From Candidatus Cloacimonadales bacterium (lineage in GTDB: Bacteria; Cloacimonadota; Cloacimonadia; Cloacimonadales; JAFGVF01): a stretch of 64,000 nucleotides of DNA. How positions within the stretch are numbered: position 1 is the stretch's first letter; each line of letters begins with the position of its first letter. Position numbers and translations under genes: made by a program. The stretch lies in the NCBI GenBank assembly GCA_963677495.2, contig CAXXOU010000003.1:32001-96000 (forward strand), in the 5' to 3' direction. This document shows positions 14,210 through 61,494 of this stretch, in pieces. A model generated the notes under the pieces. That model was not told the DNA's origin, did not search any database, and saw nothing but the letters and a program-made list of their open reading frames with translations.

Positions 14210-16069
14210 TTACTCTTCTCTTCTAGCCAGTCTTTCTTCAAGTATCTGTATCTTTTCTCGCAATTCTTTCATCCTGAACTCTCTGCCAATAAACAAGTTA
14301 TTAAATCGTTTAAGCTCCTCATTCTTAACTTCCAGTTCGTTTGTACGCTGCTTAACAATATCCTCGAGTTTCATACTGTGCTCTTCAAGCTGCTTCTCAA
14401 TTTTCTTCATATCTGTTAGGTCAACAGCTTGAACTATCGCATTTATAACCTTTTTATTACTGTTCAGCACAGGTGTTATAACTGTTTTAACTGTTACATG
14501 CTTGCCATTTAGTGGTGCAATATGAGATACTTGCTTGAAATCGTAATCGATAATGAACTCTACGGTTTCACCATCATTGAATACCTTCTCAATTAAAGGC
14601 ATATGGCCTGATTCTTTGATTATATTGTCTTTGAAAAGATTATATTTGCCGACAACCTCTTCTCCATTAGTGCCAAAAAGCGACTTACTGGCAGGATTTA
14701 ACGAAACTAGTGTACCATTAGAATCTGAAATCCACATGCTGACGCTAGCTGATTCAATAATTGTGTTCAAGAATGTAGTTTTTTCTTTAAGGTCCCGCTC
14801 AATCTCTTTTTGATGAGTAATGTCTCTAACTATATGCACTATCCCATTTAACTGGTTATCATTGCTTAAAACAGGAGTAACAATAACCTCAAGCCATTTA
14901 CCATTAGTGTTGATTACCATAACCTCTTTATGAAAAGATTTAAACAAGCGTTTTGATGGGCAGTCAGGTAGTCTATAATCAGTTTTGTGAAAAATTTCAT
15001 TACATTTCTTATTCAGGATGTCCTCTGCCTGACAATTGAGCATGCTTAGGGTAGCTTTATTGTATTGAATAATCCTTGAGTCAGTGTTTAATAAGCATAT
15101 AGAGTCCGTGATTGAGTCAAAAGTTGAGTGCCATTTATTAATAACATCATGAAGCTCTTTTTCACGTATAATCACCTGATTATACTGATAATTCAATTCT
15201 TTAGTCTTTAACTGTATCTGTTTCTTTAAGAGGAAATATATGAGTAAGGATATAACTGCAAGAGTGAAGATTGAGATGCTTAAAAATTTAATCCACCTTG
15301 TTAACCTCTTTGATCTTCTATGTGCTCCCAGATGATGCCTTTTTGATGTATGATAGATTGAGTTTTCATTAGTCTTCATCTTAGACAACCAGGAGTCTAT
15401 TTTACCAATTAAAAACTCTCCTTTTGGACTTCTCTTGACAGCAGCATAGGAAAGCTTATATGGCTTTAGTTGTATTGGAGCAGCAATGAGCCCATACTCA
15501 TCAGCGTGACTATTACCATAATCTTTATTGGTTATTACAGCATCAACTTCATTATTTTCGATAGCAACAAAAGATTGTTTATATGTATCAAATTCCTTTA
15601 CATTTATCTTAATGTCTAGCCTTTTAGTTATGTCAACAAGCCCATTATCTCCAACAAGATTTAGACTCCCACGCATTCCGGCAATTGTAAGCCCCTCTAA
15701 GTCATACAGCGAGTTAAGGGGTTTATCTTTCTTTGTATAGACTTGAAACCAACTTAGAATTACATGTTCTGAAAAAGTGAAAGTTTTGACACGCTCAGTA
15801 GTAATACCGACATCTAAAAAAAGGTCTATTTCCCCCTTTTTAAGGTTCTCCATATGCTCATCAAAAGAGTCAAATACATATTCAACATCCCAGCCTTCCT
15901 GCAACGAAATAAAATCAGTAATCTCTGCCCATACTCCCTTCGGAGTGCCATCTTTACCCATGAAAATCTTGGGTGGATTATCGTAGATTCCTATTCTGAC
16001 AACCTCTTCGCAAAATATTAACCCTGAAAGCACAAGTAATAAAGAAATGGTAAGTATTCTAAGCTTCAT
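14210..16069 (-). CDS. Sensor with periplasmic solute-binding domain, TM and two PAS domains, no output domain
   Basis: IGIYDNPPK SBP domain; PAS ending VRDIT and AVDLT; ends in coiled coil NNLFIGREFRMKELREK. Confidence 0.85.
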   Translation of the reverse strand: MKLRILTISLLLVLSGLIFCEEVVRIGIYDNPPKIFMGKDGTPKGVWAEITDFISLQEGWDVEYVFDSFDEHMENLKKGEIDLFLDVGITTERVKTFTFSEHVILSWFQVYTKKDKPLNSLYDLEGLTIAGMRGSLNLVGDNGLVDITKRLDIKINVKEFDTYKQSFVAIENNEVDAVITNKDYGNSHADEYGLIAAPIQLKPYKLSYAAVKRSPKGEFLIGKIDSWLSKMKTNENSIYHTSKRHHLGAHRRSKRLTRWIKFLSISIFTLAVISLLIYFLLKKQIQLKTKELNYQYNQVIIREKELHDVINKWHSTFDSITDSICLLNTDSRIIQYNKATLSMLNCQAEDILNKKCNEIFHKTDYRLPDCPSKRLFKSFHKEVMVINTNGKWLEVIVTPVLSNDNQLNGIVHIVRDITHQKEIERDLKEKTTFLNTIIESASVSMWISDSNGTLVSLNPASKSLFGTNGEEVVGKYNLFKDNIIKESGHMPLIEKVFNDGETVEFIIDYDFKQVSHIAPLNGKHVTVKTVITPVLNSNKKVINAIVQAVDLTDMKKIEKQLEEHSMKLEDIVKQRTNELEVKNEELKRFNNLFIGREFRMKELREKIQILEERLARREE

Positions 16070-16455
16070 ATTATACTCACTTTGTTATGAAAAGTTAACA
16101 AATTACAGACACTTAACTATAAATATAAGGTTGAGTTATACTTGTCAATATTTTTATTATTAGCTGTTTTCTCAAGACTTTTCCCTCTATGCTCTATCAT
16201 AATTCTTGAGAGTCTCTTGGGCAATCCTAGGGCAAAACTTCATAATCACAAGTTGTAATACTCAAGAGAGTGATAAGCTTTTCATCAGCAAATCCAGTAG
16301 ATTTAATAACAATTATGAGAGGGCAATAAGGCGGAAATTAGGAAGCTAAATATCATTCTAGAAAAGTTAGAATAAACGAGATTGATTAGAAAATCATTGC
16401 CAAATAACAGAGACATTCAATTATTTGAATAAATTCAAATCTCGAAGGAGGCAAT

Positions 16456-17784
16456 ATGAATCCTCAGATGAAAACCTCTGTTAAGAGCATCATTCAGGAA
16501 TACCCAAACTTGAAGTTATCCATCGATTATGAAGAGTGGCAAACCGATTTTCTCAGGTTTTATAATAGCCAGGTAAACTATAATATATCAAAGCAATCTG
16601 TTTCTGTCGGTATCTCCGTATATGATGGTAAAAAATCATATTCATTCGGTATTACGGAACCAACTGAGTCTAAAATTAGAACCGGTATTGATAATGCCAT
16701 CCTCAAAGTAAAGGATTTACCGGAAGACCCTGATTTTGTTGATCTTGAGGACAATACAGAGATCGTAGAACCCAAAAATATTCCAAATAACATTGAGCTT
16801 CTCTCTCTAGAAAAGAAGATTGCAATCCTCGAAAAGATTGCAAAGATGGCTGAATCACATGGTTTTGGAATCTATGGCACATTCATCTGTAATGCTGTAT
16901 ACTATAATACACAGAACAGTAATGGTGTTGATAAAGAGGACTTCGGTTCTCCAATCATGCTTGAACTTAAAGCTGTGAAACATGATACGCAGGTTACAGT
17001 TTTAGAAACATTCGGTAGTGAGAACATGGAGCATTTCGATATTGATGGCTTCATTTCAAGACTTGAGCAGAAGATTATCTCTGCTAAACTTCCGGTAGAA
17101 GATGTAGAACCCGGATATTATGAAGTTGTACTTGCTCCCAGATGTATTGGTGAATTCTTATTCTACTTCCAAGGTTCAATGTCAGCTAACTCCTATGACA
17201 CTAAATCAAGCTTCTTCTTAGGTCAGGAAGATGAACAGTTGTTCCCAACAACTATCAATGTTTCAGACCAACCTAACCACCCTTACTTGATACATAAGAG
17301 TTATTATAGCGGTTATCCTGCAAATGATTTAGAGTTAATCAAAGAAGGTAAGTTTGCTAACTGGATGTGTTCAAACTATTATCATCATAAAACCGGATTA
17401 CCTAAGAATGGTAACCAGGGCAGATGTCTGGTGATGGAAACCGGTGATAAGACTGTTGATGAGATGATAAAAGGCGTTAAGAAAGGCATCTATATCTCAA
17501 GTCTGCACTATATGAACTTCATAAACTCACGAGAGACTTCACTTACTGGTCTCACTCGTGACGGTACATTCCTTATCGAAGATGGTAAGATTACAAAGGT
17601 ATTGAATAATCTTCGTTTTACAGAGAAGATTTCTAACGTCTTGAAATATACTACAGAGATTGAGAACCAATCCTACACAGTTCCATGGTCAAACAACTAT
17701 GGTACATTTGGGATAAACTCCAGTCGCACACCTCATGTGAAGGTGTCTAAGTTCCAGATCTCATCATCAACACACACAATATAG
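16456..17784 (+). CDS. pmbA: PmbA/TldE-like metalloprotease subunit
   Basis: YEVVLAP, LTGLTRDGTFLIEDGKI, NLRFTE; lacks HExxxH; paired with tldD. Confidence 0.8.
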   Translation: MNPQMKTSVKSIIQEYPNLKLSIDYEEWQTDFLRFYNSQVNYNISKQSVSVGISVYDGKKSYSFGITEPTESKIRTGIDNAILKVKDLPEDPDFVDLEDNTEIVEPKNIPNNIELLSLEKKIAILEKIAKMAESHGFGIYGTFICNAVYYNTQNSNGVDKEDFGSPIMLELKAVKHDTQVTVLETFGSENMEHFDIDGFISRLEQKIISAKLPVEDVEPGYYEVVLAPRCIGEFLFYFQGSMSANSYDTKSSFFLGQEDEQLFPTTINVSDQPNHPYLIHKSYYSGYPANDLELIKEGKFANWMCSNYYHHKTGLPKNGNQGRCLVMETGDKTVDEMIKGVKKGIYISSLHYMNFINSRETSLTGLTRDGTFLIEDGKITKVLNNLRFTEKISNVLKYTTEIENQSYTVPWSNNYGTFGINSSRTPHVKVSKFQISSSTHTI

Positions 17785-17793
17785 GGAGGTAAC

Positions 17794-19233
17794 ATGAAGA
17801 AATTAGTATATGATATTATCCGAAAACTGGACCTTCCTGAAGTGACTTTTGCTGATGTTCGCTTTACATCTACAGACAATAAAGGTATCTTCTTCCAACG
17901 TGGTAAACTCAAAGGTTACAGTGCTAATCTAGATGCTACTGCTCTTGGTATAAGAGTGCTTGTTGATGGTTGCTGGGGTTTTGCTGGTACAGACATTATT
18001 GATCCTACTAAAATCGATAACCTTATCAAGATTGCCATCAATAATGCTAAGCACGGCAGTAAGTTCAGGAAGTTCCCAGTTAAGTTTGAGAAGATAGCTC
18101 CTACAGTTGGCAGCTATTATTTTACACCTGAAATCGACCCATTCATGATGAGTGATGAGGAGTTTACCGGTTACTTTGAAAAGCTTTCTAAGATGCTTGT
18201 TGGCAATGAGAAGATTGTAAACTCATACGTGATGGGTAGTTTCTATCGTCAGTATAAAATCTATGCTAACACAGAAGGTACTTTCACGGATACTCTTGTT
18301 TACGATACAAATCCAATGATGATGGTCTTTGCCAGTGATGGTAAAAGTATGCAGACAAGAACCTATCCCGGTCATATGAATGGTCGTAGAGGTGGCTTTG
18401 AAGTTGTGAAAGGATATGAGTTTGAAAAGAATACTGAAAAGATAATCAAAGAAGCAATAGATCTTCTTGATGCTCCACGTATCGAAGAGGAAAAAGCTGA
18501 TATCATTATCGGTGGTGGACACTTAGCTCTTCAATTACATGAATCAGTTGGACATGCAACAGAAGCTGATAGAATCTTCGGTATGGAAATTTCTTATGCT
18601 GGTAAAACCTTTATTAAACCGGAGATGCTTGGCAACTTCAAGTATGGCTCTGATATCGTTAATATCTACTCTGATAGTACAGACCCAAGAGGCATGGGCT
18701 ACCATCTCGTGGATGATGAAGGTGTACCGGGTCGTACTGTTGATATTATCAAAGATGGTATCTTGTTAGATCAGCAGACTTCAAGAGAGATTGCTCCACA
18801 ACTTGGTGTGCAAGCCAGCTCTAACATGCTTTCATCTTATGCAGATGATTTTCCACTTATCAGAATGACAAACTTCTGTCTCGCCCCTGGACATGGTTCT
18901 CTTGATCAACTCATAAAAGAGACTGAAAAGGGTTACTTCATAGATTATACAAAGACTTGGTCTATTGATGATAATCGTAATAATTTCCAGTTTACTACTG
19001 AAATAGGTTATAAGATTGTCGATGGTGAGATTGTAGGAATCGTTAAAGAACCTACATACTTCGGTATTACTCCTGAATTCTGGGCTGCATGTGATAGAAT
19101 CTGCGGACCTGAAGAGTGGTTACATTTCGGCACATTCAATTGTGGTAAAGGTGAACCGGGACAGTCAATGCATCTGTCTCATGGTGTTGCACCTGCTCGA
19201 TTCAAAGATATTGTTGTTAACGTGAAAGCATAA
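17794..19233 (+). CDS. tldD: TldD family metalloprotease
   Basis: GIRVLVDGCWGFA, HESVGHATEADR, DDEGV, RMTN, NCGKGEPGQ. Confidence 0.92.
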   Translation: MKKLVYDIIRKLDLPEVTFADVRFTSTDNKGIFFQRGKLKGYSANLDATALGIRVLVDGCWGFAGTDIIDPTKIDNLIKIAINNAKHGSKFRKFPVKFEKIAPTVGSYYFTPEIDPFMMSDEEFTGYFEKLSKMLVGNEKIVNSYVMGSFYRQYKIYANTEGTFTDTLVYDTNPMMMVFASDGKSMQTRTYPGHMNGRRGGFEVVKGYEFEKNTEKIIKEAIDLLDAPRIEEEKADIIIGGGHLALQLHESVGHATEADRIFGMEISYAGKTFIKPEMLGNFKYGSDIVNIYSDSTDPRGMGYHLVDDEGVPGRTVDIIKDGILLDQQTSREIAPQLGVQASSNMLSSYADDFPLIRMTNFCLAPGHGSLDQLIKETEKGYFIDYTKTWSIDDNRNNFQFTTEIGYKIVDGEIVGIVKEPTYFGITPEFWAACDRICGPEEWLHFGTFNCGKGEPGQSMHLSHGVAPARFKDIVVNVKA

Positions 19234-19252
19234 CAAACTAATAAATCTATTA

Positions 19253-19279
19253 TGGGGTATAGCTTGCTATGCCCCTTTT
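19253..19279 (+). terminator. Rho-independent terminator after tldD
   Basis: GGGGTATAGC-TT-GCTATGCCCC-TTTT. Confidence 0.65.
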
Positions 19280-19957
19280 GTTATCGCTCAAGGTGACATA
19301 TCCTTTTTATTGAGTTAGTCACGACCAACGGGAAAACGGAATTCCTAAAAAGACCTAATCCTCGTACCAAGCTCGAGCCAATACACTGAAAGGAGTTCGG
19401 CTCCAAGCGAAAGATGGCAATATAACGTTTTTAAATATGATTACAGTAAACCTGCTGAAGTTCACTTGGCGTCGAAGTCGCAAGCTAAAGCATCAGACAA
19501 ACTCCATAAAACAGAATCCCTCCAAATCTGCCAATCTACCCTTCTATCACAATTAACAGGTCACTATTACCAATTTTAAACAGCATTGTATGTGCACTAT
19601 AATTGCCCCCGACCAAGAAAATGCTTCACCTGCAACCTTAGTTATGCACACGATGTGGATAACTAAGGCCTTCGCCAAGGAGGGTCCTTGGTGGGTCCTA
19701 AGTGGCTCCAATGTGGTTCCATGTTTTTAATTGGGGGCTAATCATGTTCATCAACGCAATGTTCATCAACGCATGGTGTCGACTGGATGTGTCGACTGGA
19801 TGTCGATGGATGTTAACTCAAACTCAGTAATCTTAAACAAACTATTGAGGAAATAGGTAATATGATATTACTCAGTTAAAGCCAAGATAAAAGCCCCTCC
19901 GAAAGGAAGGGCTTTAAGCTTGAACGACTTACAAAATCGTTATGTTTTGAATTATTA

Positions 19958-22900
19958 TTATCGAGTCGATTTCATGAATAGGGTAGACCCAGAGCTTTGT
20001 ACTGCTCTTCCACCAACTACAGCCACAACTCTGTAGAACTTATGTGCAACACTTCCTCCACCGGCATGAGTGAAATCACTTGTTGGTGTTGTTCCAATCA
20101 AAGTTGAAACACTTACTGTGAAGTATGGATTGTTATCAGCATATACTTTGTAAGATGTTACAGTGATAGGATTACCGTTAACATCAAGTACTACATCATC
20201 CCAATCAAGCAAAATGTCACCATTACTTTCTGTGACAGATGTGATAACAGGAGCAACAGGTGCAGCACCTCCGGCCATAAGAGCGGATATTTCAGGATAC
20301 AATGCAGTTGTATTACCTGCTAAATCAACAGCTCGAACTGTGAAGAAATACTGAGTTCCAGGAGTCAAACCTGTTAGTATAGTCTGCTGGAATGTCACAC
20401 CTATCTGACCCATATTAGGATCATCATCAACACTCCAGAGAGCATCATTCTCTGAGACACCTGTAGATGTAGAATAATACAACTCATAATGACTGAAGTA
20501 ATCATCAGCTGTGATTAACCAACCTAGGGTTATCTCTGTGTCAGCAGGGACTCCAACAACTGCGAATACAGTAATATCAGTAGGAGGAGTTGTATCGTAG
20601 ATAAAGTCAAATGACCAATCATCACTGATACCAATCTCATCCATAGTTCCTGAATAACCGTAGCCCATACTGTTCATGACTCTTATCTCATATTGATAAG
20701 TGCCACTATCAGTTGGGTAAACAGGTATTGAGATTTCAACACTGTCAGATCTTGTTGTTCTTACGTTACTTCTTGCAAGAGAAAGCTCTGGTTCAATATA
20801 GTTTACCCATGGTTCATTGTAGCTACCGTTTCTGTCGTAATCTACTCTGATTTGTACTGAGTTTAGGTTTATTGCTTCCTCATCAGTAATCTTACATGTT
20901 ACAACAGCTTCTTGCAGATTATTGTACTGAATCTCAGCAGGTGTAAGGTTCGTGATTTCAGGAGTAGGTGGTATAAATACAAAGTAATCAGCAACAGGGG
21001 TTGCATATACATCATAATCAACATGCATTCTGAAATACCATGTTGTTTCAGGATAAAGAGCAGTGATATTTATCTGAGTTGTTGTATCATTTAAGAATGA
21101 AGATTCTGTTGTTCCATCGATGATGATTGAACCGGTATATTGGTCATTATCAGCATATTCAAGCACAAATTGGTCGAATCTATCACCAGTAAACTCATCC
21201 CAACTAAGAATAAGCTCAGTAGGACTAATCAGCTCGGAAGTTATACCTGCAACTGCCGGCATAAAGATATGCTCAATAGCCCAGTCATCAATAATGCCTT
21301 CGTCACCATTTGTTCCTGAATAACTGTAACCGTGACCATAACTGTCCATAGCTCTGAACTCGAATTTGAAGATTCCACTACTTGGTAGTGTAAGGGCAAC
21401 ATCAATAGATTGTGTATCTCTTGAGTCTAATGCTGAACGGATAGGAAGTGTATAGTCTTCCCAAGACTCATCGTATACATCATTCAGGTTATAATCAACT
21501 CTATACTGGATTGAGTTCATATCGATATCTTCTAAATCATCCATAGTCACAGAGATTGTAGCTTGATGATTATCATTCACGACAGGGTCGGTAGTAGTGT
21601 TATTTGTAAACACCGGACCGGTTGAGAGGTACTGAGTTACATAGTCAGTAAACTCACCTTGATAGCTTTCGAAGACGATTCTTGCCCTGAAGTACCACAT
21701 TGCATTTGATGCAGGTACATTAACTTCTACTGATGTAGTGGTTTGCACACCTAAATCAGCATAATCAGCGGAGGTTAAGCTAACAGCATTAGTGAAGTAC
21801 TCATTGTCAGCCATTTCAACCTCAAATGTTGAGAACTGTTCGCTTGCATATTCATCCCAACCAAGTAGAACTGAGTTTGTACTTGCTGGAGCAACTGTAA
21901 GGTTTTGCAAAGAAGGTAGTGTGATATCATCGACAATACCATTAATGGAGAAGTTATCAATTATCCAATGATTATCACTTAATTCAGATGCTGAATATAG
22001 GAATCGGAATTGGACGTTGCCTTGATAATTTAGAGCATCAAGTGCAAATGATTCGAAACCTGTAGCAGTTACTAAATAAGATGATACATCTGTCCAGGTT
22101 CCACCATCAATAGAGTATTGGAAATTTGCTGTAGTGGTTCCAGAAGTTGTTAGGAAATCATGTTCGAAACCAATTTCTATATCTCTAACACTGCTTAAAT
22201 CATAAAGAGGAGTTAACAATCTTTCATTACAAGATGCGAACAATGAGTTAGATACATTTACAGTATAATTAGTTTCAGCAACTAAAGTTGCAGTCCATGG
22301 ATTAGTAGTAGTTCCCAAATGTTCAGTTGTCCAACCTGTTGGTAAAGCACCAGACTGATCAAAGTCTTCACTAATAAGGTAATCATCAAGAACTTCCACA
22401 TAGAAGGAATCAACGCCAACCGCATTACCACTATCCTGACCATAGAAATAGAGCATTTCGCCACCATCAAAATCAACAACAGGTGTGATCTGAGCTGTGT
22501 TATCAGGATTAAGTGTAATGTTGAAGTTTGGTGTAGTACCAAAACTAAGAGATAAAGATGTATCCTCGACATCTGTGAATACAGTATCAAGGTCGATTAG
22601 GTTGATAGATTCATCTGATGTAATTACTTCAGAAGCTATTGGATTAACAACTGTTGGAACATCATTTACCGATAATACTCTTACAGTGAGTTCTGAAATC
22701 CATGTACCATCAGCATCGTAGATATCAAGAACTTCTGTTCCATACCAGTTCTCAGTTGCTGAGAATGTGATGTCCTCATTTGCAAGTAACACACTAACTT
22801 CTGTATTGCCTGTCCAGGATGCTACAGCTTGCTCTTTGAAGCTATTTACAACAGTTAATGTTGTATCTTCGTTAAACTGGACTGCCGGTTCCATCTGTAT

Positions 22901-25900
22901 GCGAATATTTGGAACAAATGAAGTTCGGTTACCATTTGGAGGATTTGAAGGGGATGGGTTACTGCTATCACTATAGTAGAAGATTGATCTGTAACCTGCA
23001 GTAGCTGATGCAAGGAACCTATCACTACTGCTATTATAACCACCACCATTTTCATCAATAGCAATCACTAAGTTATCAACATTGTTATAATTGAATGGAG
23101 AATCTAACTCGAACTCTATCCAACCCGGGTTAGCCGGTGTTGTTGAGTATGGAGATATATCGACTTGAGTCAACTGTGAAAGCGGAATCCAGTCATTATT
23201 GGATGAGAACTCAGTTAGTGATGTATGCCCCATATAGATAGTCCAGTTCATGCTGTTAGAAAGACTTGAGCCACCGTTATAATAGTAGTAAATCTTATCA
23301 ATCTGGAAATTCTCTTTGTCAAGTTCAGATTGAAGATATATTGACTGAGTATAGTTATATCCGTAATAGCAGTTTATTGGCAAATAGGTACCGATATTAT
23401 CATCTTCTCCAATATTTACAAAGCCTGCATCACGAGTATCAAACTCCCAAATTGGACAGCTTGTTGCATCACCAAAACTGTTATATGGAACAACCTGCCA
23501 ATAATATGTAGTATCATAATCAAGTTCTTGACTAATAGTATACGATTCTACATAACCTAAAGCCAAGCCATTGATATGATTTGTAGGAGGATTATCAGTT
23601 CCAACATATAGTTTGGAACCTGTTGGGAACAGTCCGTTATAACTCCATTGGAGATTAGGATTCCGAATAACATGTCCTTCCTGGTTGTCAGGAGCAATAT
23701 ATGTAGCTGCTTCAGGTGGTAAATCTGAAGTTGAGAATGACCAGACAGGAATATTCTGTCCATCACCTGTATTATAATATGGTGTAACTGACCAATAATA
23801 TGTAACTCCACCTTGATAACCATTGTAGCTATACTCTAGTACGTTTCCTAAGTCCAAATCCTGATAGATATTTGTTGGAGGGTTATCAGTACCTAAACTA
23901 AGTCTATATCCATTAGCATTGTTTGTACTACTCCACTCCAGTAACTGAGTTAACGACCTCATAGTTTCCCCATCCAATGGTGCTACTAAAGTAGTTGGAA
24001 CCAATGGTAAATCTTGCAGATGGAATCTTGTATTTGGAATATATGAAACTCTGTTACCACTTGGTGGAGAAGCAGGAGATGGATTTAGAGTGTCACTATA
24101 GTAGTGTATACTCCTATTACTTCCAACAGAAGAACAATAGAAATCTTCACTACTTGAACTATAACCTCCAGAGTTCTCTTCTACTGCTACAACTAAGTTA
24201 TCCACATTATTGTATAAGAAAGGAGTGGTTAAAGTAATCTCTACCCAGTTATCTGAACCTATAACAGGATCACCACTAAAAACTTGGATTAAAGAACTAA
24301 CATCAATCCAATCAGATGAAGATGCATACTCTGTTTGCTGTGTATGCCCGATATATACGACCCAAGCATGATTGTTAGATAAGGTACCATTACCATTATG
24401 TTGATAATATATTTTATCTATTATCTTGTCATTCACATCTAATTCTGATTGATTGTAGATTGTTTGTGAGTATGAATATGCATAATATGGCTCAATTGGT
24501 AGATTTCTATTAACTGAATTTCCTGTTCCAATACCTATCCAATCATCACCAAGATTAGACTGAAAACTAAAATCACTTGTAGAGTAACCTGTTGTAAATC
24601 TATTCTTACAAACTACTCTCCAATAGTAATACGTTTCCTCTGTTAATGTTGGTGGAGACCACTGTCCACTTACCCCCGCAGGTTCATTAAACAGTACTTG
24701 GTTTACTGGTGGGAAGACTGTATCAAAGTAAAAGTCATATGTATCAGTGTTGACACCGAAATCCCAAGAAATAGTAGGATTCAGGTCAACATAGATTGCC
24801 TGGTATTCCGGAGATACATTGCTGATTGCAGATGGCAACATACCTGATGTTGTGAAACTATATGTGGATTGTGTTTCAACTTGAGCATTACTATTTTTCG
24901 ATACAACAGTCCAATAATAATCTGTGTATATTGTTAAGTCACCTGGATCATATGAACCAGAGACTCCAGCTACTGCGTCTGAAACAACTAAAGTGGTTGG
25001 AGGATTAACTGTATCAAAATAGAGATCATATGTTTCTGTATTTATACCGAAATCCCAGCTTAAATCAACTTCACAATCAATATCATTTCCCGTATTTAAC
25101 GGTGATTCATTACTTATTACTCCAGGTGTCATATCTATAGTTGTAAAAGAAAACTCATTTGTAGTTTCTGTTGATGTGTTCGAATTTCTAAGTACAACTT
25201 TCCAATAATACGTAGTATTATCAGTTAGAATACCAGGATCATATGTAGCACTTACTCCCGCTACAGCATTATCAGTAACCATACTTACCGGAGGATTGAC
25301 AGTATCAAAATACAAATCATAATTCTCAGTATTGATGCCAAAATCAAAATTCAAAGTAGTATCAAGTGGAAGATTACTACTAGCATCAATAGGTGTGTAA
25401 GAGACAAGTGATTCAGGAGTATAATCTATAGTCGTGAAAGAATAGTTATCTTCTGAATCTCCACCACCTGCATCATAGCTAAATATTTGTAAAAAATATG
25501 TAGTCCCATCCATAAGTGTTCCCGGAGTGAAACTTCCCTGACCTGAAACAGATCCACCAACTACATGCTCAACAGTTGGAGGATTATCTGTACCGAATAA
25601 AAGATCATATGTAACAGTATCAGGTGCGAAATCCCAAGTAATAGTTGGACTCAGCTCTACATCTACTGCACCGTCTGTTGGTAACATATTTGTTACATTA
25701 CCGGGTCCTGAAATACTTCCTGATTGGTCAGCTGATACATTGATGACATAAACACCATTGTTTGAGCTATAACCTTCAACACAAATATAATATATGCTCC
25801 CCTGATTTAATGGAATATTATATATTCTTGAATCGTTACCGGTTCCACCATCATCATCTGCCCAAAGTTGTGTCATTGTTGAATCATAGACTCTAAGGTA

Positions 25901-26146
25901 AGTGTCAAAAGATGAACCACTAAGGTCAATATCTACATTGGTTAAGTCCATGCTTGGAGCAATTGAATAAAAGACATCTTTTGCTGTATTTCCAACAGTG
26001 TTAGTTACTGAAAAATGGTTTGTGTTACCAGTATCATAAAATGGTAAACTCTCAATCTCAACTGCTGTGCTATAGGTGTTCCCCCCTGTAGCAAAAACTA
26101 ATTGTGTTATTAAAAATAGGATAAAAACTATTCCCAATCTCTTCAT
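19958..26146 (-). CDS. 2062-aa acidic secreted/surface protein: PPC-like domain, repeated Fn3/Ig-like modules, cadherin-like segment
   Basis: Signal peptide; FDTYLRVY..DDDG; repeated YDLYFDTVNPP...YYW modules; duplicated PIxxYYxYxYxQxIYxQSEL domain. Confidence 0.85.
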   Translation of the reverse strand: MKRLGIVFILFLITQLVFATGGNTYSTAVEIESLPFYDTGNTNHFSVTNTVGNTAKDVFYSIAPSMDLTNVDIDLSGSSFDTYLRVYDSTMTQLWADDDGGTGNDSRIYNIPLNQGSIYYICVEGYSSNNGVYVINVSADQSGSISGPGNVTNMLPTDGAVDVELSPTITWDFAPDTVTYDLLFGTDNPPTVEHVVGGSVSGQGSFTPGTLMDGTTYFLQIFSYDAGGGDSEDNYSFTTIDYTPESLVSYTPIDASSNLPLDTTLNFDFGINTENYDLYFDTVNPPVSMVTDNAVAGVSATYDPGILTDNTTYYWKVVLRNSNTSTETTNEFSFTTIDMTPGVISNESPLNTGNDIDCEVDLSWDFGINTETYDLYFDTVNPPTTLVVSDAVAGVSGSYDPGDLTIYTDYYWTVVSKNSNAQVETQSTYSFTTSGMLPSAISNVSPEYQAIYVDLNPTISWDFGVNTDTYDFYFDTVFPPVNQVLFNEPAGVSGQWSPPTLTEETYYYWRVVCKNRFTTGYSTSDFSFQSNLGDDWIGIGTGNSVNRNLPIEPYYAYSYSQTIYNQSELDVNDKIIDKIYYQHNGNGTLSNNHAWVVYIGHTQQTEYASSSDWIDVSSLIQVFSGDPVIGSDNWVEITLTTPFLYNNVDNLVVAVEENSGGYSSSSEDFYCSSVGSNRSIHYYSDTLNPSPASPPSGNRVSYIPNTRFHLQDLPLVPTTLVAPLDGETMRSLTQLLEWSSTNNANGYRLSLGTDNPPTNIYQDLDLGNVLEYSYNGYQGGVTYYWSVTPYYNTGDGQNIPVWSFSTSDLPPEAATYIAPDNQEGHVIRNPNLQWSYNGLFPTGSKLYVGTDNPPTNHINGLALGYVESYTISQELDYDTTYYWQVVPYNSFGDATSCPIWEFDTRDAGFVNIGEDDNIGTYLPINCYYGYNYTQSIYLQSELDKENFQIDKIYYYYNGGSSLSNSMNWTIYMGHTSLTEFSSNNDWIPLSQLTQVDISPYSTTPANPGWIEFELDSPFNYNNVDNLVIAIDENGGGYNSSSDRFLASATAGYRSIFYYSDSSNPSPSNPPNGNRTSFVPNIRIQMEPAVQFNEDTTLTVVNSFKEQAVASWTGNTEVSVLLANEDITFSATENWYGTEVLDIYDADGTWISELTVRVLSVNDVPTVVNPIASEVITSDESINLIDLDTVFTDVEDTSLSLSFGTTPNFNITLNPDNTAQITPVVDFDGGEMLYFYGQDSGNAVGVDSFYVEVLDDYLISEDFDQSGALPTGWTTEHLGTTTNPWTATLVAETNYTVNVSNSLFASCNERLLTPLYDLSSVRDIEIGFEHDFLTTSGTTTANFQYSIDGGTWTDVSSYLVTATGFESFALDALNYQGNVQFRFLYSASELSDNHWIIDNFSINGIVDDITLPSLQNLTVAPASTNSVLLGWDEYASEQFSTFEVEMADNEYFTNAVSLTSADYADLGVQTTTSVEVNVPASNAMWYFRARIVFESYQGEFTDYVTQYLSTGPVFTNNTTTDPVVNDNHQATISVTMDDLEDIDMNSIQYRVDYNLNDVYDESWEDYTLPIRSALDSRDTQSIDVALTLPSSGIFKFEFRAMDSYGHGYSYSGTNGDEGIIDDWAIEHIFMPAVAGITSELISPTELILSWDEFTGDRFDQFVLEYADNDQYTGSIIIDGTTESSFLNDTTTQINITALYPETTWYFRMHVDYDVYATPVADYFVFIPPTPEITNLTPAEIQYNNLQEAVVTCKITDEEAINLNSVQIRVDYDRNGSYNEPWVNYIEPELSLARSNVRTTRSDSVEISIPVYPTDSGTYQYEIRVMNSMGYGYSGTMDEIGISDDWSFDFIYDTTPPTDITVFAVVGVPADTEITLGWLITADDYFSHYELYYSTSTGVSENDALWSVDDDPNMGQIGVTFQQTILTGLTPGTQYFFTVRAVDLAGNTTALYPEISALMAGGAAPVAPVITSVTESNGDILLDWDDVVLDVNGNPITVTSYKVYADNNPYFTVSVSTLIGTTPTSDFTHAGGGSVAHKFYRVVAVVGGRAVQSSGSTLFMKSTR

Positions 26147-26391
26147 ATAAACCTCCTCTCTAACATGTTAAGTTATCAAAAATTAACATTTTGCAAATAT
26201 TTGATTTCGAAAATTGGGTGTCAAGATTTAATAAGAAAGTAATGAGATAAACTCTGTTTTAGAAGAACTTATGCTTATTTTGAAGAAATGCTACTTAATG
26301 ATTGACAATTAACTTCTTAATGCACAAAATGAAATCATAAACAAGGAAAGTATAAGCAAACGATTAACCTCACATGCAATCAGCGGGAAAC

Positions 26392-28608
26392 ATGAAAAAA
26401 CTGAACTTAACATTTTTCTACCTATCATTATTGGTTGGTTTATTCCTTTGGTTACTAGATGCAATCTTAGATTGTTTTTTCTACGAAGGGAATTTCATTC
26501 AAACACTTATTTTGGGTATACCGAGACAAGAACTCTTTATTCGTATATCTGTTCTATTTGTGCTAGGTGTGTTTGGCTTAATAGTCTCACATTATTATAC
26601 CAAATCAAAGCTGTTGAGCCAAATGAATAAACGGAATCAAGAAAGGCTTTCTCGAATGCTAAACCTTTCTCCTATGGGAGTGATCACACTAAACTTTAAT
26701 GGTAATTTTGAGTTCTTTAATAAAGCATTTATTAATACAACCGGTTATCAATTAAGTGATTTAGAAACAATAAATGACTGGTTTGAATTATTATATCCCG
26801 ACACTCAAAGGAGAAAAGCTGTAAGAAAACTTTGGGAAAATGATATTAATCAGGTGAGGTTAGGAAAGAAAGAGATAATAACCTCTGTACAACCGATTAA
26901 CTGTAAAGATGGTTCAGTTGTTTATGCTTCAATATCAGCGTCAATAGTTGAAGAGCAGATAGTATTGTCTTTTCTTGATATAACTGAGATTAAGGAAGCA
27001 GCTCTGAAAGTTGAGCAGCAACAGAAACAATTAAGACAGATAATTAACTTAGTCCCACATTTCATATATGTTGTGGATGCGGATGGGATATATAAACTAG
27101 TTAATAAGGCTGTAGCTGACTTTGTTGGGCTTACTGTTGAAGAACTTGAAGGCAGTAAGAGCTGCGAAGAGCCTGTATCAGATGAAGATGTAAAAAGGTT
27201 TAGAAGTACGAATGAGGAAATATTGTCAGGAAATTGTAGCAAGCTAGAATACTTTGAGACTCTGACTCATAAGGATAACAAATTATTCAATTTCAAAACA
27301 TTGAAGGTACCATTCGACGTAGAAGATGAATCCAAGAAATATGTGCTTGGAGTATCAGTAAACATTACAGATTTGAAAGAAGCCAAGAAAAGTGAAAAGG
27401 ATTTACATAATGTTCTAGAAAACATAGTCCACAATAGCTCAAATATGTTCTACCAGCATGATACAAACTTCAATCTAACTTATGTTAGTCCACAGATTAA
27501 AAATCTTTTGGGCTATGAAGTAGAATATGCGTTAAATAATGGAACGAAGTGTACAACAGATAATCCCATAAATGAAGAGGCGATTATCCATACAAAGAAA
27601 GCAATTGAAACAGGTATAGCACAACCATACTTTGAAATGGAGCTGATACATAAAGATGGTAATATTGTTTGGGTAGAAGTCAGAGAGACACCCTTAATAA
27701 AAGATGGGAAAGTTATTGCTATTGTAGGAGCATTAATTGACATCACTGCTAAAAAAAGACATGAGCTTCAACAGAAGACTTACCAAGAAGACTTGCAAAA
27801 ACAGATTATTGAACGAACAAAAACTCTTGAGGAAAAAACAAACTCCCTAAAAGAATCACAGGTCGCATTAACTTATCTCCTTGAAGATGTCAATGAAGCT
27901 CAGTCCGAGTTAGTAAAGGCTAATGAGGAATTAGTTGCAATGAATGAAGAATTAGAATCTTTCTCATACACTATTTCACACGATTTAAGATCACCCTTAA
28001 GAGCTATAAACGGATTCACAAAGATTCTTAGTGAAGAATATTGCAATAGCTTTGATGAAGAGGGAAAACGCTTGATGAGTATAGTTTGCAATAATGTTAC
28101 AATGATGAGTGATTTAATAAACGACCTTCTCAACTATTCTAAACTAGGTAGAAAGATGATACAGAATAGGGTTATAGATATGAATCAAGTAGTAGAAGTA
28201 GAGCTCGATTTAGCTACAAAGATTAGTGAGAATGATAAACTAAAACTTATCAAGCATAAGCTTCCTCAAGCCAAGGGGGATATTGTCTTAATTAAACAAG
28301 TATGGCAAAACCTTATATCTAATGCAATAAAGTACAGTAGTAAGGTTGAGTTCCCAATAATAGAAATAGGTTCTTTTATAAAAGATGAGCATGTGGTATA
28401 TTTTATTAAAGATAATGGTGTTGGTTTCGATATGAAGTATCATCACAAAATCTTTGGTGTTTTCGAACGTTTGCATTCTCTTCTAGAGTTTGAAGGTACA
28501 GGAGTTGGATTAGCAATTGCATATAGGATTATTCAAAAACATAATGGTAAAATCTGGGCAGAATCAGAACTAAACAAAGCAACTACATTCTATTTTTATA
28601 TAAATTAA
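26392..28608 (+). CDS. Membrane PAS sensor histidine kinase
   Basis: 2 TM, 3 PAS, FSYTISHDLRSPL H-box, NLISNAIKY, DNGVGF, GTGVGL. Confidence 0.92.
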   Translation: MKKLNLTFFYLSLLVGLFLWLLDAILDCFFYEGNFIQTLILGIPRQELFIRISVLFVLGVFGLIVSHYYTKSKLLSQMNKRNQERLSRMLNLSPMGVITLNFNGNFEFFNKAFINTTGYQLSDLETINDWFELLYPDTQRRKAVRKLWENDINQVRLGKKEIITSVQPINCKDGSVVYASISASIVEEQIVLSFLDITEIKEAALKVEQQQKQLRQIINLVPHFIYVVDADGIYKLVNKAVADFVGLTVEELEGSKSCEEPVSDEDVKRFRSTNEEILSGNCSKLEYFETLTHKDNKLFNFKTLKVPFDVEDESKKYVLGVSVNITDLKEAKKSEKDLHNVLENIVHNSSNMFYQHDTNFNLTYVSPQIKNLLGYEVEYALNNGTKCTTDNPINEEAIIHTKKAIETGIAQPYFEMELIHKDGNIVWVEVRETPLIKDGKVIAIVGALIDITAKKRHELQQKTYQEDLQKQIIERTKTLEEKTNSLKESQVALTYLLEDVNEAQSELVKANEELVAMNEELESFSYTISHDLRSPLRAINGFTKILSEEYCNSFDEEGKRLMSIVCNNVTMMSDLINDLLNYSKLGRKMIQNRVIDMNQVVEVELDLATKISENDKLKLIKHKLPQAKGDIVLIKQVWQNLISNAIKYSSKVEFPIIEIGSFIKDEHVVYFIKDNGVGFDMKYHHKIFGVFERLHSLLEFEGTGVGLAIAYRIIQKHNGKIWAESELNKATTFYFYIN

Positions 28609-28609
28609 T

Positions 28610-30157
28610 ATGAGGTACAGTATGATTGATAACTATCAAACCAAATATGATGCTCTATTCAATCAAAACTTGGTTGGTATGATATACACTAATATACAAG
28701 GGGACTTTAAAGAAGTTAATGATAAATTTGCTCACATGTTAGGTTACACTAAAGATGAGCTAATCAATAGGAACTTTAAAGAAATCACTCACCCGGAAGA
28801 TTTAAATCTAAGTGATGAGAGTATTATGCAACTTGAGAAAGGACTTATTGATACTTTTACAATCGATAAACGCTATTTACACAAAAATGGCTCTCCAATT
28901 TGGGTAAGACTTCATGTTAAAGAAATAAAATCTAAGGATAAAGATGATAGAACTATTTTAGCTATAGTTTTAGATATATCTGAACAGGTTAAATGTAAGA
29001 ATAGATTGGAGAAGAATATCCAAGCATTAACAACTCCCTTGGAAAATCTCGAGAGCATAGAGTTTCAGACCCTATTCGATGTTAATGATATACAGCAGAT
29101 TCAAGATATTTTTTCTGATTCTACAGGGGTTGCTTCTATTATAACATATCCTTGTGGACAACCCATAACTAAGCCAAGTAATTTTAGAAGAGTTTGTTCT
29201 GATATCATAAGATCAACTGAAGAGGGGTTTAAAAGATGCAAGCATTCTGATTCATATATTGGTAAAATGAACCAGGATAAAGCGAACGTAATTGAATGCT
29301 TATCATGCGGATTATGGGATGCCGGTGTGAATATTTCTGTAGGTGGAAAACACTTAGCTAATTGGCTCATCGGCCAAGTTAGAGATAAAGATGTTGATAA
29401 AGAAAGACTTATTGAATATAGTAAGGTTATTGGAGTTAATGAAGATGAGCTTATAAAAGCTTATTTAGAAGTGCCAATAATGGAACTACAGCAGTTTGAA
29501 AAAATAGCAAAAGCCCTATTTATAGTTTCTCAACAACTTTCCAAGATAGCGTATCAAAACCTACAACAAGCTCGTCTTATTGCCAAACTTCAGCGTATAG
29601 AAGAAGATCTCAAGAAAAATGAGGATAATCTCTCTAAAGTACAAGAAATTAGCAGATTAGGAGTTTGGGAGATTGACACTGAAACAAATGTCATTACTTG
29701 GTCGGAGCAAAACTATAAAAACTTTGGTGTCAAATATGGGGAGCCAGTTGACTATGATAGATTTCTTAGTACAATACATCCGGAAGATGTTGAATATGTT
29801 AGTAACAAATGGAATAAGGCTCTTCAAGGTGAAGATTATGACATAGAACATAGAATTATTATTGATAATCATGTGGAATGGGTCAGAGAGAAGGCTGAAG
29901 TTTTCTTTGATGAGATAGGAAAACCATTAAAGGCAATTGGCTTCACACAAAACATAAGTGAGAGAAAATTAATAGAGTTAGAATTAAAGAAATATAAAGA
30001 CTCCTTAGAAGAGATTGTTCATGCCAGAACTCATGAATTAGAGGAAAAGAACAAGGAGTTAGAGCGTTACAACAACCTGTTTGTTGGTAGAGAGTTTAGG
30101 ATAAAAGAGTTGAAAGATAAACTCAAAGAGCTTGAATCTAAATTAAACAAGAACTAG
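28610..30157 (+). CDS. PAS-PocR-PAS sensor lacking an output domain
   Basis: ITHPED PAS; PocR TGVASIIT...C...GLWDAG...NWLIGQV; IHPED PAS; tail NNLFVGREFRIKELK. Confidence 0.85.
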   Translation: MRYSMIDNYQTKYDALFNQNLVGMIYTNIQGDFKEVNDKFAHMLGYTKDELINRNFKEITHPEDLNLSDESIMQLEKGLIDTFTIDKRYLHKNGSPIWVRLHVKEIKSKDKDDRTILAIVLDISEQVKCKNRLEKNIQALTTPLENLESIEFQTLFDVNDIQQIQDIFSDSTGVASIITYPCGQPITKPSNFRRVCSDIIRSTEEGFKRCKHSDSYIGKMNQDKANVIECLSCGLWDAGVNISVGGKHLANWLIGQVRDKDVDKERLIEYSKVIGVNEDELIKAYLEVPIMELQQFEKIAKALFIVSQQLSKIAYQNLQQARLIAKLQRIEEDLKKNEDNLSKVQEISRLGVWEIDTETNVITWSEQNYKNFGVKYGEPVDYDRFLSTIHPEDVEYVSNKWNKALQGEDYDIEHRIIIDNHVEWVREKAEVFFDEIGKPLKAIGFTQNISERKLIELELKKYKDSLEEIVHARTHELEEKNKELERYNNLFVGREFRIKELKDKLKELESKLNKN

Positions 30158-30405: not shown

Positions 30406-31674
30406 ATGTCTTCTAATTATTATCCCCTATGGTCTAAACTGGGTTTAGATCTTGAAACACATGATGCTTTACTCGCAGCCTTAGGTAGTGGGTATGAGAG
30501 TGTATTCCTTAATCAAAAGAACCGTCCTGCAGGGATGGAGTACTTTGATTTTGTTATGTCTGAAGTTCATGGACTAAGGATTAAAGAGATTGATGATGCT
30601 AGAGAACAAGGTAAGCTTGTTGTTGGATCATTCTGTGTATTTGTTCCTGAAGAACTAATACTAGCTGTAGATGGCGTGTCTGTAGGTCTATGCGCAGGTG
30701 CAGAGTTTGGCTTTGATTTAGCTGAACAACATATTCCACGTAACACATGTGCTTTAATCAAATCTGCATTTGGTTTCAAACTTACTAAAGTTTGTCCCTA
30801 CATGGAAACCTCTGACATCATTGTTGGAGAAAACACATGTGATGGTAAGAAGAAAGCTTATGAAGAATTTGCAAAACTTGAGCCTAAACTATATGTTATG
30901 GATTTACCACAAACAAAGTCTGATTCCGGTAAAGCTCTTCTCAAAGCTGAGTATATCAAGTTTATCCAGCTATTAGAAGAGAAATCAGGTAAAAAAATAA
31001 CTCTTGAATCTCTTACAAAAGCTATTGAGACTGTAAATAATAAACGTAAAGCTTTAGCTAGACTAAACAACTTAAGAAAGCTGTCCCCATCTCCTATCTC
31101 AGGACTTGATGCACTGCTAATCAATCAGGTCTTTTTCTATGATGATCCTCTAAGATTTACAGATTCAGTAAACAAGATCTGCGATACTCTAGAAGAGAAA
31201 GTAACAGATTCCCAATCAGATAAGCCTAGACTTATTGTTTCCGGGTGCCCAATGGCTGTACCAAACTGGAAACTTCCATCTATCATTGAAACTAGTGGTG
31301 CTGTAATTGTAGGAGAAGAATCGTGTGTCGGAGAGCGTGGGGCAAGAAACATTACAGAATCAAAAGCAGATACTCTTGAGCAGCTGGTTGATAATATTGT
31401 TGATAGATATTTCAAGAACGATTGTGCCATCTTTACTCCAAACGTTGAAAGAACAGAGCATATAAAAGAGATGGTTAAAAAATATAATGCTGATGGTGTT
31501 GTACATTACTCATTACAGTTCTGCCAGCCTTATGATATAGAGAGCAGAAGTGTTGAAGAGGAACTTGAAAAGAATGATATCCCAACTCTCAATATTGTAA
31601 CTGACTATAGCCAGGAAGATGTTGGCCAGTTGAAAACACGTATTGAAGCATTTATTGAAAGAATTAAGGATTGA
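30406..31674 (+). CDS. 2-hydroxyacyl-CoA dehydratase family, double-cubane cluster protein type
   Basis: GSFCVFVPEEL, GLCAG, NTCALIKS, CPY, ENTCDGKKK, EESCVG, CAIF, QFCQPY. Confidence 0.88.
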   Translation: MSSNYYPLWSKLGLDLETHDALLAALGSGYESVFLNQKNRPAGMEYFDFVMSEVHGLRIKEIDDAREQGKLVVGSFCVFVPEELILAVDGVSVGLCAGAEFGFDLAEQHIPRNTCALIKSAFGFKLTKVCPYMETSDIIVGENTCDGKKKAYEEFAKLEPKLYVMDLPQTKSDSGKALLKAEYIKFIQLLEEKSGKKITLESLTKAIETVNNKRKALARLNNLRKLSPSPISGLDALLINQVFFYDDPLRFTDSVNKICDTLEEKVTDSQSDKPRLIVSGCPMAVPNWKLPSIIETSGAVIVGEESCVGERGARNITESKADTLEQLVDNIVDRYFKNDCAIFTPNVERTEHIKEMVKKYNADGVVHYSLQFCQPYDIESRSVEEELEKNDIPTLNIVTDYSQEDVGQLKTRIEAFIERIKD

Positions 31675-31729
31675 TAGGCTAATTGGTCTGTCGACTATAT
31701 GTCGGCAGACCTAACTTTTAGGAGTAAAT

Positions 31730-32476
31730 ATGTTATTTGGTGGTTTGGATATAGGATCAAGAACAATCAAACTTGTGCTAGTAGAGAATAACGAAATTGT
31801 TTCTCAAGAAGTAATGAAAAACACATTCGATAAGAAGTTCATTAAAGAGGGACTGGTCGGTTCATATGATATTGACCACTTGACCATAACCGGTTATGGT
31901 CGCCATCTTTTTGATAATGAAGAGAACTGTAGTATTATCACAGAGATAAAAGCATTTTCACTTGGTATTCATCATCTCTTTCCTGAATGTAGAACAATAC
32001 TGGATATAGGTGGACAAGATACAAAAGCTATATCTCTTGATTCCAAAGGAAGGATGAAGAAGTTCGTGATGAATGATAAATGTGCTGCAGGCACCGGAAG
32101 GTTTTTGGAGATTATGGCTAATGCTCTAAATTATGAACTCTCAATGTTTGGAGATGCTGCCATAAAAGCAAAATCAACTGTTAAAGTTAATAACATGTGC
32201 ACTGTATTCGCTGAATCAGAGGTTATCTCACTTCTCTCAAACGGTATTAATCGAGAGGACATTGCAAAGGGTATTCATGAATCCATTGTTAGACGTGCAA
32301 TTTCCCAGCTTCAAACCATTGGATTAAAGGATAAGCTAGCTTTTGTCGGAGGTGTTGCCTTGAATAAGGCTATGAGACATATTCTTCAAGACCTGTTGCA
32401 AACAGATATTATAACACCTGAAAATCCTCAAATAGTAGGTGCTCTTGGTTGCGCAATTCATAGTATGAATAATTAG
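31730..32476 (+). CDS. ATP-dependent dehydratase activase (HgdC/BadF-like ASKHA)
   Basis: GLDIGSRTIK, TGYGR, DIGGQDTK, MNDKCAAGTGRFLE, CTVFAESE. Confidence 0.92.
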   Translation: MLFGGLDIGSRTIKLVLVENNEIVSQEVMKNTFDKKFIKEGLVGSYDIDHLTITGYGRHLFDNEENCSIITEIKAFSLGIHHLFPECRTILDIGGQDTKAISLDSKGRMKKFVMNDKCAAGTGRFLEIMANALNYELSMFGDAAIKAKSTVKVNNMCTVFAESEVISLLSNGINREDIAKGIHESIVRRAISQLQTIGLKDKLAFVGGVALNKAMRHILQDLLQTDIITPENPQIVGALGCAIHSMNN

Positions 32477-42389: not shown

Positions 42390-42681
42390 AAGATGAATAC
42401 ATAAATTTAAACTGCTCGGAGCATGTCAAGAATAAAAGTTAAAACTTTGTGATGATAAGAGTGGATAGTATTATATAGCGCTGAACTAGGGTCTAATTTA
42501 GATATTGACATTGAAGCATCATGCAGTTATCAAACACAGTCATGAATTCAAAATCTATGCAATTTCCATCATTATTATCAACAAAACACTGATCAAATTG
42601 AAAAAAAGGTTTACAGTAAAAAATCAGACATATATATTTGTTATGAAAATATTGATAGGTTTTAATGTATGGGAGATTATT

Positions 42682-44544: not shown

Positions 44545-44551
44545 GATCTAA

Positions 44552-61480: not shown

Positions 61481-61494
61481 CTTACAAATCCTCT

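Follow-up and report, generated by a model that had tools for sequence, protein, structure and literature searches.

Genome annotations contain many 'PAS domain S-box proteins' that lack an output domain, and these are usually ignored as being incomplete. In chemoreceptor arrays, many receptors with diverse inputs are coupled to one kinase, CheA, through a highly conserved helical tip. In Cph1/Rcp1-type systems, a kinase is paired with a single-domain receiver. In RetS-GacS and other multikinase networks (PMC8498467 and PMC6530869), a sensor is reported to modulate another kinase by direct helix-helix contact and not by phosphotransfer. The S-helix is defined, in the relevant part of PMC1592074, as a heptad helix of approximately 40 residues with a central ERT signature at positions c-d-e and the Arg at 'd', and is described there as a connector that links a sensor upstream to an effector domain downstream. 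Here we analyze a stretch of 64,000 nucleotides (nt) from Candidatus Cloacimonadales bacterium (assembly GCA_963677495.2, contig CAXXOU010000003.1, positions 32,001 to 96,000 of the forward strand), which is called the window. It encodes two sensors without output domains, P0001 and P0002, which end in nearly the same C-terminal tail, and a histidine kinase, P0003, which possesses an extra coil ahead of its H-box. Gene order and co-occurrence in several phyla strongly support a specific link between such tail sensors and kinases with an ALxxLLED coil.

The features of the window that concern this system are as follows (aa, amino acids; ORF, open reading frame).

14210-16069, minus strand: tail sensor 1 (P0001, 619 aa), from the ORF table, translation and Pfam
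14213-14371, minus strand: tail of sensor 1, residues 567-619, with R575 T576, then GREFRMKEL; Gly595 is at Arg +20
26374-28608, plus strand: coil kinase (P0003, 744 aa), from translation, Pfam and PDB sequence comparison
27838-27939, plus strand: coil module SQVALTYLLEDVNEAQSEL in P0003, an insert of five heptads that separates the S-helix R481 from the pre-H-box (His536)
28610-30157, plus strand: tail sensor 2 (P0002, 515 aa), from the ORF table, translation and Pfam
30002-30154, plus strand: tail of sensor 2, residues 465-515, with R473 T474 and GREFRIKEL from Gly493; a single continuous helix is predicted

Pfam and translation gave P0001 a signal peptide with SBP_bac_3, a transmembrane (TM) segment, two PAS domains and the tail. 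P0002 consists of PAS, PocR, PAS and the tail, and its PocR domain (PF10114) is a full-length match (positions 2-162 of the 162 in the profile, aligned to residues 155-315; E 2.9e-50). Neither HisKA, HATPase_c, GGDEF nor any other output domain was detected by Pfam in the two proteins. The genes neighboring P0001 include no kinase, whereas P0002 starts 1 nt past the stop codon of P0003. P0003 is a sensor histidine kinase with N-terminal TM segments, three PAS domains, an S-helix, a 35-residue coil insert, HisKA (residues 528-592, E 6e-12; SHDLRSP with His536) and HATPase_c (635-743, E 1e-20). The segment ESQVALTYLLEDVNEA corresponds to its residues 494-509 and to nt 27853-27900. No Response_reg domain was found by Pfam in the 48 window ORFs of at least 90 aa. 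A third tail was detected by a six-frame scan of the whole genome. It belongs to a multi-PAS protein of 951 aa that is encoded on another contig and lacks an output domain; the three tails share 59-73% identity over 53 columns. A second ALTYLLEDVN kinase was also found, so that the coil is present in just 2 of the 33 kinase-like ORFs of this genome. Thus, the description given by an earlier sequence-only reading of the window is borne out. It had reported two output-less sensors with unrelated inputs, the near-identical tails (present as quoted), a kinase with an extra pre-H-box segment 1 nt upstream of P0002, and no response regulator in the window.

A search of 1.84 billion representative proteins with a profile built from the three tails gave 4,352 protein clusters at an expectation value (E) of 1e-3 or less and 845 at E<=1e-10, and in 150 of the 150 best profile matches the match ended 18 or fewer residues from the C-terminus. 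The P0002 tail was also used in a word-indexed search, which listed 120 proteins. The inputs preceding the tail in these listed matches included PAS, GAF, PocR, HAMP, single or double Cache, REC, TPR, 5TMR-LYT, SBP_bac_3 and 4HB_MCP. HisKA, HATPase_c and GGDEF occurred in none of the 120. Homologs continuing into a catalytic domain had been named in the sequence-only reading as one result that would refute it. The core xRExRxx[DE]L was present in 234 of the 236 proteins from the profile and word searches, always 9-30 residues before the end. Exact GREFRIKEL was carried by 200 of them, and an H-box-like string by just one. Thus, as had been argued in that reading against random truncation, the tail is a genuine terminal module and not a truncation artefact.

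The sensors could also be decayed or mis-assembled kinases, that is, pseudogenes or parts of a split long gene. The tail does derive from the S-helix/DHp helix 1 region of a kinase (DHp, dimerization and histidine phosphotransfer domain), as described below. However, the family comprises thousands of clusters with the core always 9-30 residues from the end, and the downstream kinases start with membrane or sensor domains of their own (4HB_MCP, MASE1, 5TMR-LYT, CHASE5). Furthermore, no homolog with an internal tail was found among 150 + 234 + 111 + 76 examples. Decay is therefore extremely improbable. The split-gene, read-through and pseudogene readings were rejected as effectively refuted by the terminal position and by the N-terminal domains of the kinases.

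Conservation was counted across 219 distinct tails. The choice of these tails required RT at 20 residues ahead of the core, which fixes R1 and T2, and five core positions are fixed by the regular expression that 234 of the 236 proteins passed; with this restriction, conservation was 97% for F24 (heptad position f), 99% for K27 (b), 100% for E28 (c), 89% for G21 (c) and 100% for N16 (e). Near-invariance at the outward-facing b, c and f positions is more than a plain two-stranded coil needs. In the AlphaFold2 monomer model, the tail (61 residues) formed one helix, uninterrupted over residues 2-60, with a predicted confidence (pLDDT) of 95.8. A mini four-helix bundle, formed through a helix-turn-helix at the conserved Gly, was considered and rejected, since the model is one unbroken helix.

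A predicted single helix with a heptad pattern is also what a homodimerization cap would look like. In that case the sensors would act via their PAS domains (PAS-PAS contacts or ligand buffering) or without a partner, and S-helices are known dimerization elements, according to the part of PMC1592074 that treats them. However, this explanation has to contend with the near-invariance, in hundreds of clusters, of heptad positions b, c and f, with the occurrence of the same tail after unrelated inputs including REC, TPR and membrane domains, and with the specific link of the tail to one kinase class. We consider a role restricted to homodimerization very unlikely.

The first half of the tail is a canonical S-helix, with the ERT signature (E at position 0 in 74% of the 219 tails), Arg at 'd', a heptad zipper with L/V/F at positions a and d, a core Asn, and a location after PAS or HAMP domains. 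Unlike the connector described in PMC1592074, the S-helix of the tail leads to a conserved helix of approximately 35 residues and then to the end of the protein, with no effector domain, in 150 of the 150 best profile matches and in 234 of the 234 core-bearing proteins.

The second half points to the kinase itself. The distance from the S-helix Arg to the tail Gly was 20 residues in 94, 27 in 8 and 34 in 2 of the 106 tails measured; P0001 and P0002 both have 20. The predominance of 20 supports the S-helix assignment independently of the RT filter above. Canonical kinases with this type of H-box, among them paralogs in this genome, carry the phospho-His 20, 27 or 34 residues past the Arg. The tail Gly, 20 residues past the Arg, is thus in the register of the canonical phospho-His. 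The NKELExF sequence ahead of the tail core matches the kinase pre-H-box, and the tail proteins end approximately 23 residues past the Gly, roughly at the end of DHp helix 1. Alignment of the tail with the kinase by hhalign gave a homologous S-helix in register (97%) over columns 1-32 only, with divergence afterwards. The shared Arg spacing, the NKELExF sequence and the stop near the end of helix 1 indicate that the tail is, as judged from these alignments, a His-less stub of the S-helix and DHp helix 1.

This stub is not a HisKA domain (PF00512). While the Arg spacing and NKELExF are shared with bacteriophytochrome-type HisKA/DHp helix 1, the His position of the tail is occupied by Gly (89%), Asp or Asn, GREFRIKEL replaces SHDLRxPL, and just 9-30 residues follow the core, with no helix 2, catalytic (CA) domain or Pfam HisKA match. 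Against Pfam at E<=10, the tails gave coiled-coil noise only and no HisKA. NCBIfam gave weak matches at the level of the S-helix (TorS and LvrA, E 3e-4 or worse), PDB sequences gave nothing under E 0.03, and the ESM Atlas returned unnamed clusters with scores below 0.9. Full-text literature searches, whose coverage lies outside subscription journals, found no account of the tail, the coil or their pairing. The tail family thus appears to be undescribed in the libraries and literature searched.

In P0003, the distance from Arg to His is 55 residues, as against 20 in the canonical paralogs of this genome with the same H-box. In related loci it was 55 in 17 coil kinases and 48 in 4, as against 20, 27 or 34 in canonical kinases. 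Since 55 is 20 plus 35, the SQxALTYLLEDVN segment of P0003 is an exact five-heptad insert. The DHp domain after the insert matches bacteriophytochrome-type kinases in PDB (8f71, 9ys3 and 8uph), and no solved counterpart of the insert itself was found among the PDB matches. A word-indexed search with P0003 residues 474-524 returned the query alone, which reflects a limit of the word index; hidden Markov model (HMM) and regular-expression searches found many coils. In two other kinases (G188:C64:15934-16140 and G320:C35:13763-13966), tandem SQxALTYLLEDVN copies were observed exactly 105 nt (35 residues) apart. Because of this spacing, the five-heptad unit is suggested to be a duplicable module.

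To place tail genes in their gene neighborhoods, one genome per species was scanned. The scan gave 78 loci with tail genes. They span 8 or more groups at phylum level (Bacteroidales, Prolixibacteraceae, Cloacimonadota, Aminicenantes, several Desulfobacterota, Calditrichota, Chlorobiota, Victivallaceae and Neomarinimicrobiota), and their ORFs were classed by HMMs of the tail core and of the coil. The 111 tail genes formed 90 arrays, most of them with one gene (76) and the others with two (10), three (3) or six (1). A coil kinase was directly next on the same strand after 21 of the 90 arrays, and 5 more had one intervening gene, while a kinase without the coil directly followed just 3. Of the 28 coil-bearing ORFs, 27 were kinases. 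The stop codon of the sensor frequently overlapped the start of the kinase (gaps of -1, -4, -14 and -23 nt). The order in the window, kinase then sensor, is rare (1 of 90 arrays).

Pfam analysis of 60 neighbors showed the usual operon. One or more tail sensors are followed by the coil kinase, a single-domain receiver and often a hybrid kinase. The coil kinases carry their own inputs (4HB_MCP, HAMP, CHASE5, MASE1, 5TMR-LYT, SBP_bac_3, REC or PAS). Receivers of 122-177 aa were found 16 times in 15 of the 24 coil-kinase loci, and a REC-PAS-HisKA-HATPase-REC hybrid kinase then followed in 7 of the 24. The H-box class of the coil kinase and the downstream receiver in other genomes resemble the Cph1/Rcp1 type. 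The coil kinase differs from it in having no phytochrome photosensory module and in possessing the extra 35-residue coil and upstream tail-sensor genes.

Since receivers and hybrid kinases are regular members of these operons and most tail genes do not adjoin a coil kinase, the tail might bind another conserved partner of the pathway. This could be the single-domain receiver, the hybrid kinase of the second tier or a protein encoded elsewhere, and the coil kinase would then be a mere operon member. The genome of the window speaks against this. Its tails and coil kinases occur without a receiver adjoining either coil kinase, both of which are orphans in this respect, and its four receivers of this kind sit by canonical kinases without tails. 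Moreover, it is the insert, and not the receiver, that tracks the tail. We regard another partner as unlikely. The four receivers (G000:C1:259328-259741, C3:180105-180518, C4:202032-202436 and C4:1339578-1339979) show 43-61% identity to the operon receiver of other phyla, and each lies beside a kinase without tails. Two of the kinases adjoining them, with an SHDLRAP-type H-box, have canonical spacing and no coil.

The sequence-only reading had proposed HMMs of both motifs as a check of their co-occurrence and adjacency. Besides the 21 arrays above, matches were counted in three sets of genomes with cut-offs set at E<=1e-8 (tail) and E<=1e-5 (coil).

Own phylum, 232 genomes: tail in 23, coil in 25, both in 20
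Even sample of a Bacteroidales-level order, 301 genomes: tail in 14, coil in 14, both in 13
Desulfobacterota class, 209 genomes: tail in 4 (one match partial), coil in 2, both in 2
Total, 742 genomes: tail in 41, coil in 41, both in 35

A tail match on the same strand within 5 kb accompanied 16 of 38 coil matches in the own phylum, 11 of 18 in the Bacteroidales sample and 2 of 2 in the Desulfobacterota class. In five further tail genomes from other lineages, one coil match was found in each. Tail matches exceed coil matches in these genomes (up to 19 versus 3 in one genome, and 11 versus 2 in another). Several tail sensors per coil kinase are thus the rule.

We propose that P0001 and P0002 are members of a large family of kinase-less co-sensors. 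Each co-sensor would connect an ordinary input module (PAS, PocR, SBP, GAF, HAMP, Cache, REC, TPR or others) via an S-helix to a helix of approximately 35 residues. This helix would occupy the place of DHp helix 1, with Gly replacing the phospho-His, and the protein would end where the DHp hairpin would start. The tail would be the output, and as a parallel dimer it would bind a cognate histidine kinase from a single class, with a DHp domain of the bacteriophytochrome type and the five-heptad SQxALTYLLEDVN coil between the S-helix and the H-box. The most likely contact would be lateral packing of the tail on the insert. Several trans-encoded sensors could thereby modulate the autophosphorylation of one kinase. 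This kinase would then pass the signal to a single-domain receiver and, in many cases, further to a hybrid kinase. We give a probability of about 0.5 to the reading that the tail sensors act by binding coil kinases directly, mainly through the insert. What the sequences show is the module, its place at the end of the protein, its extreme conservation and its linkage to the coil kinases; from them we infer physical binding, a contact site, and an effect that may be activating or inhibiting. A complex prediction with two copies of the kinase S-helix/coil/DHp region and two tails, run without controls, gave a score of 0.00 and speaks neither for nor against binding.

The kinase's own S-helix/DHp region is a serious alternative as the docking site, judging from its homology to the tail. 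The tail, as a mimic of DHp helix 1 and the S-helix, might exchange with or pack on these elements of the kinase off the insert, as RetS does with GacS. Catalytically silent hetero-oligomers would then be formed, and the sensors would be signal-dependent inhibitors. The homologous S-helix, in register in tail and kinase, fits this explanation. So does the tail Gly, which coincides exactly with the phospho-His of canonical kinases in a protein that stops at the expected end of helix 1, and so do kinases without the insert, which often adjoin tails of a wider subfamily (L098/L099 and L150, described below). It leaves unexplained why the 35-residue insert is present in 21 of the 24 kinases directly downstream of GREFRIKEL-type tails, and why insert and tail co-occur genome by genome. 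We consider such off-insert binding rather unlikely, though not remote.

Several points weigh against the proposed docking on the insert. Charge complementarity of tail and coil is modest. The sequence-only reading had a basic tail dock on an acidic coil, and this holds for the P0002 tail (+3) and the P0003 coil (-9); across the family, mean net charges are just +1.8 for tail cores (range -2 to +7, n=51) and -1.8 for coils (range -5 to +3, n=27). As many as 64 of the 90 tail arrays do not adjoin a coil kinase. Six genomes possess the tail without a detected coil and six the coil without the tail, mostly incomplete genomes. In the own phylum, the tail-only genomes are G149 (77% complete), G187 (82%) and G211 (where an adjacent coil scores 2.8e-5), and three of the five coil-only genomes are less than 85% complete, the others being G145 (93%) and G161 (98%). 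Of another five tail genomes, three have a coil match and two have none. The co-occurrence counts lack phylogenetic independence, and operon linkage trivially accounts for some of the co-occurrence. The conservation figures for loci L003-L080 are inflated, since these loci were found via the peptide pattern GREFR[IM]KE, and the coil seeds were chosen by regular expression.

The wider subfamily with the motif FNxAMVGRELRMIELKKEVNxL...G..PRY adds to these points. It was represented by 76 instances in 77 metagenome loci (L088-L164). The expectation that the GRELRMIELK motif would usually be internal was not borne out. In 76 of 76 instances the tail lay 8-49 residues from the ORF end, and none was in a kinase-like ORF. 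These tails are often followed by a kinase, a receiver of approximately 146 aa and another kinase. A coil-like insert was present in only 4-5 of the 13 kinases directly downstream (L090, L111, L122, L125 and perhaps L161). Three others, L098 and L099 (identical in sequence) and L150, have canonical spacing and no insert (RT...NKELEAFSYSVSHDL). Since most kinases adjoining GRELRMIELK tails lack the insert, the coil is not a universal docking site. The interpretation offered in the sequence-only reading is thus supported in part. The terminal module, its link to coil kinases and the several sensors per kinase stand. Docking of the tail on the coil is a plausible proposal, its charge argument is weak, and in this subfamily most adjacent kinases lack the insert.

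Variant tails were found beside variant coils. Tails with Leu24 adjoin coils with Asn21 in six cases (L016, L087, L090, L111, L122 and L125), while tails with Phe24 adjoin coils with Tyr, Phe or Leu at position 21. From these residues, a pairing of tail and coil variants is suggestive, but it may reflect a single ancient split. In the locus L016:264-15605, six tail sensors share one operon with a coil kinase and a receiver. Downstream of these, a REC-PAS-coil-PAS protein ends in a second tail type, FNKAMVDRELKIIEMKEEVN...YPPVW, which is the type of the wider subfamily above, and the last protein has another kind of coil, AAMNLLQD. This operon looks like a two-tier cascade of tail/coil pairs. 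The second tail type was found in output-less proteins only (12 of 12 matches).

The tail sensors, if they bind coil kinases, differ from chemoreceptors in having a single helix and not a hairpin bundle, and their kinase has sensor domains of its own; no CheW-like adaptor and no methylation sites were seen. RetS-like proteins are full kinases with DHp and CA domains, whereas the tail sensors are non-catalytic, have one dedicated tail, occur many per kinase and are found in many phyla. A more general scheme is possible, and we put it forward tentatively. In many phyla, the His-less tail might act as a plug that docks any sensor in trans on the inserted coil as its socket. Orthogonal pairs, GREFRIKEL with ALTYLLEDVN and GRELRMIELK with AALNMMED, might perhaps keep pathways apart. 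One kinase might conceivably integrate a dozen or more sensors, as a cytoplasmic modular counterpart of chemoreceptor arrays.

Thousands of output-less sensors thus carry one dedicated C-terminal module and have a specific genomic partner, and the tail merits its own family model in domain databases. If the proposed binding is true, it would give these sensors a function and add a many-sensors-to-one-kinase layer to two-component signaling. The tail of approximately 50 residues and the 35-residue insert would then be ready-made parts for rewiring sensors onto kinases.

Some other features were noted in and around the window. P0003 (residues ~10-75) and some GAF-tail sensors (P0075 and P0081) share, as compared by eye, an N-terminal two-TM element, WxxDAxLDxxxF...P..E..IR. 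Between a TldD/PmbA pair and the coil kinase lies a 2,062-aa ORF (19958-26146, minus strand) whose sole match is C-terminal and fn3-like; from this, it is probably a giant surface protein. Directly 3' of tail sensor 2 (30406-32476, plus strand), a 2-hydroxyglutaryl-CoA dehydratase D-component and a BcrAD/BadFG-type activator ATPase are encoded. Five ORFs in a row on the plus strand (42505-45185; 215, 156, 152, 154 and 191 aa) have no Pfam family and may form an array of paralogs. Two ORFs, one for an rve integrase (262 aa) and the other of 144 aa, occur together both in the window (60695-61929, minus strand) and beside the third tail sensor (L001, 10404-11641, minus strand). The 144-aa ORF matches HTH_28 in the L001 copy and has no Pfam family at E<=1e-6 in the window copy. 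The integrase Pfam scores are identical in the two places, and the pairs are probably, by these matches, copies of one insertion sequence element.

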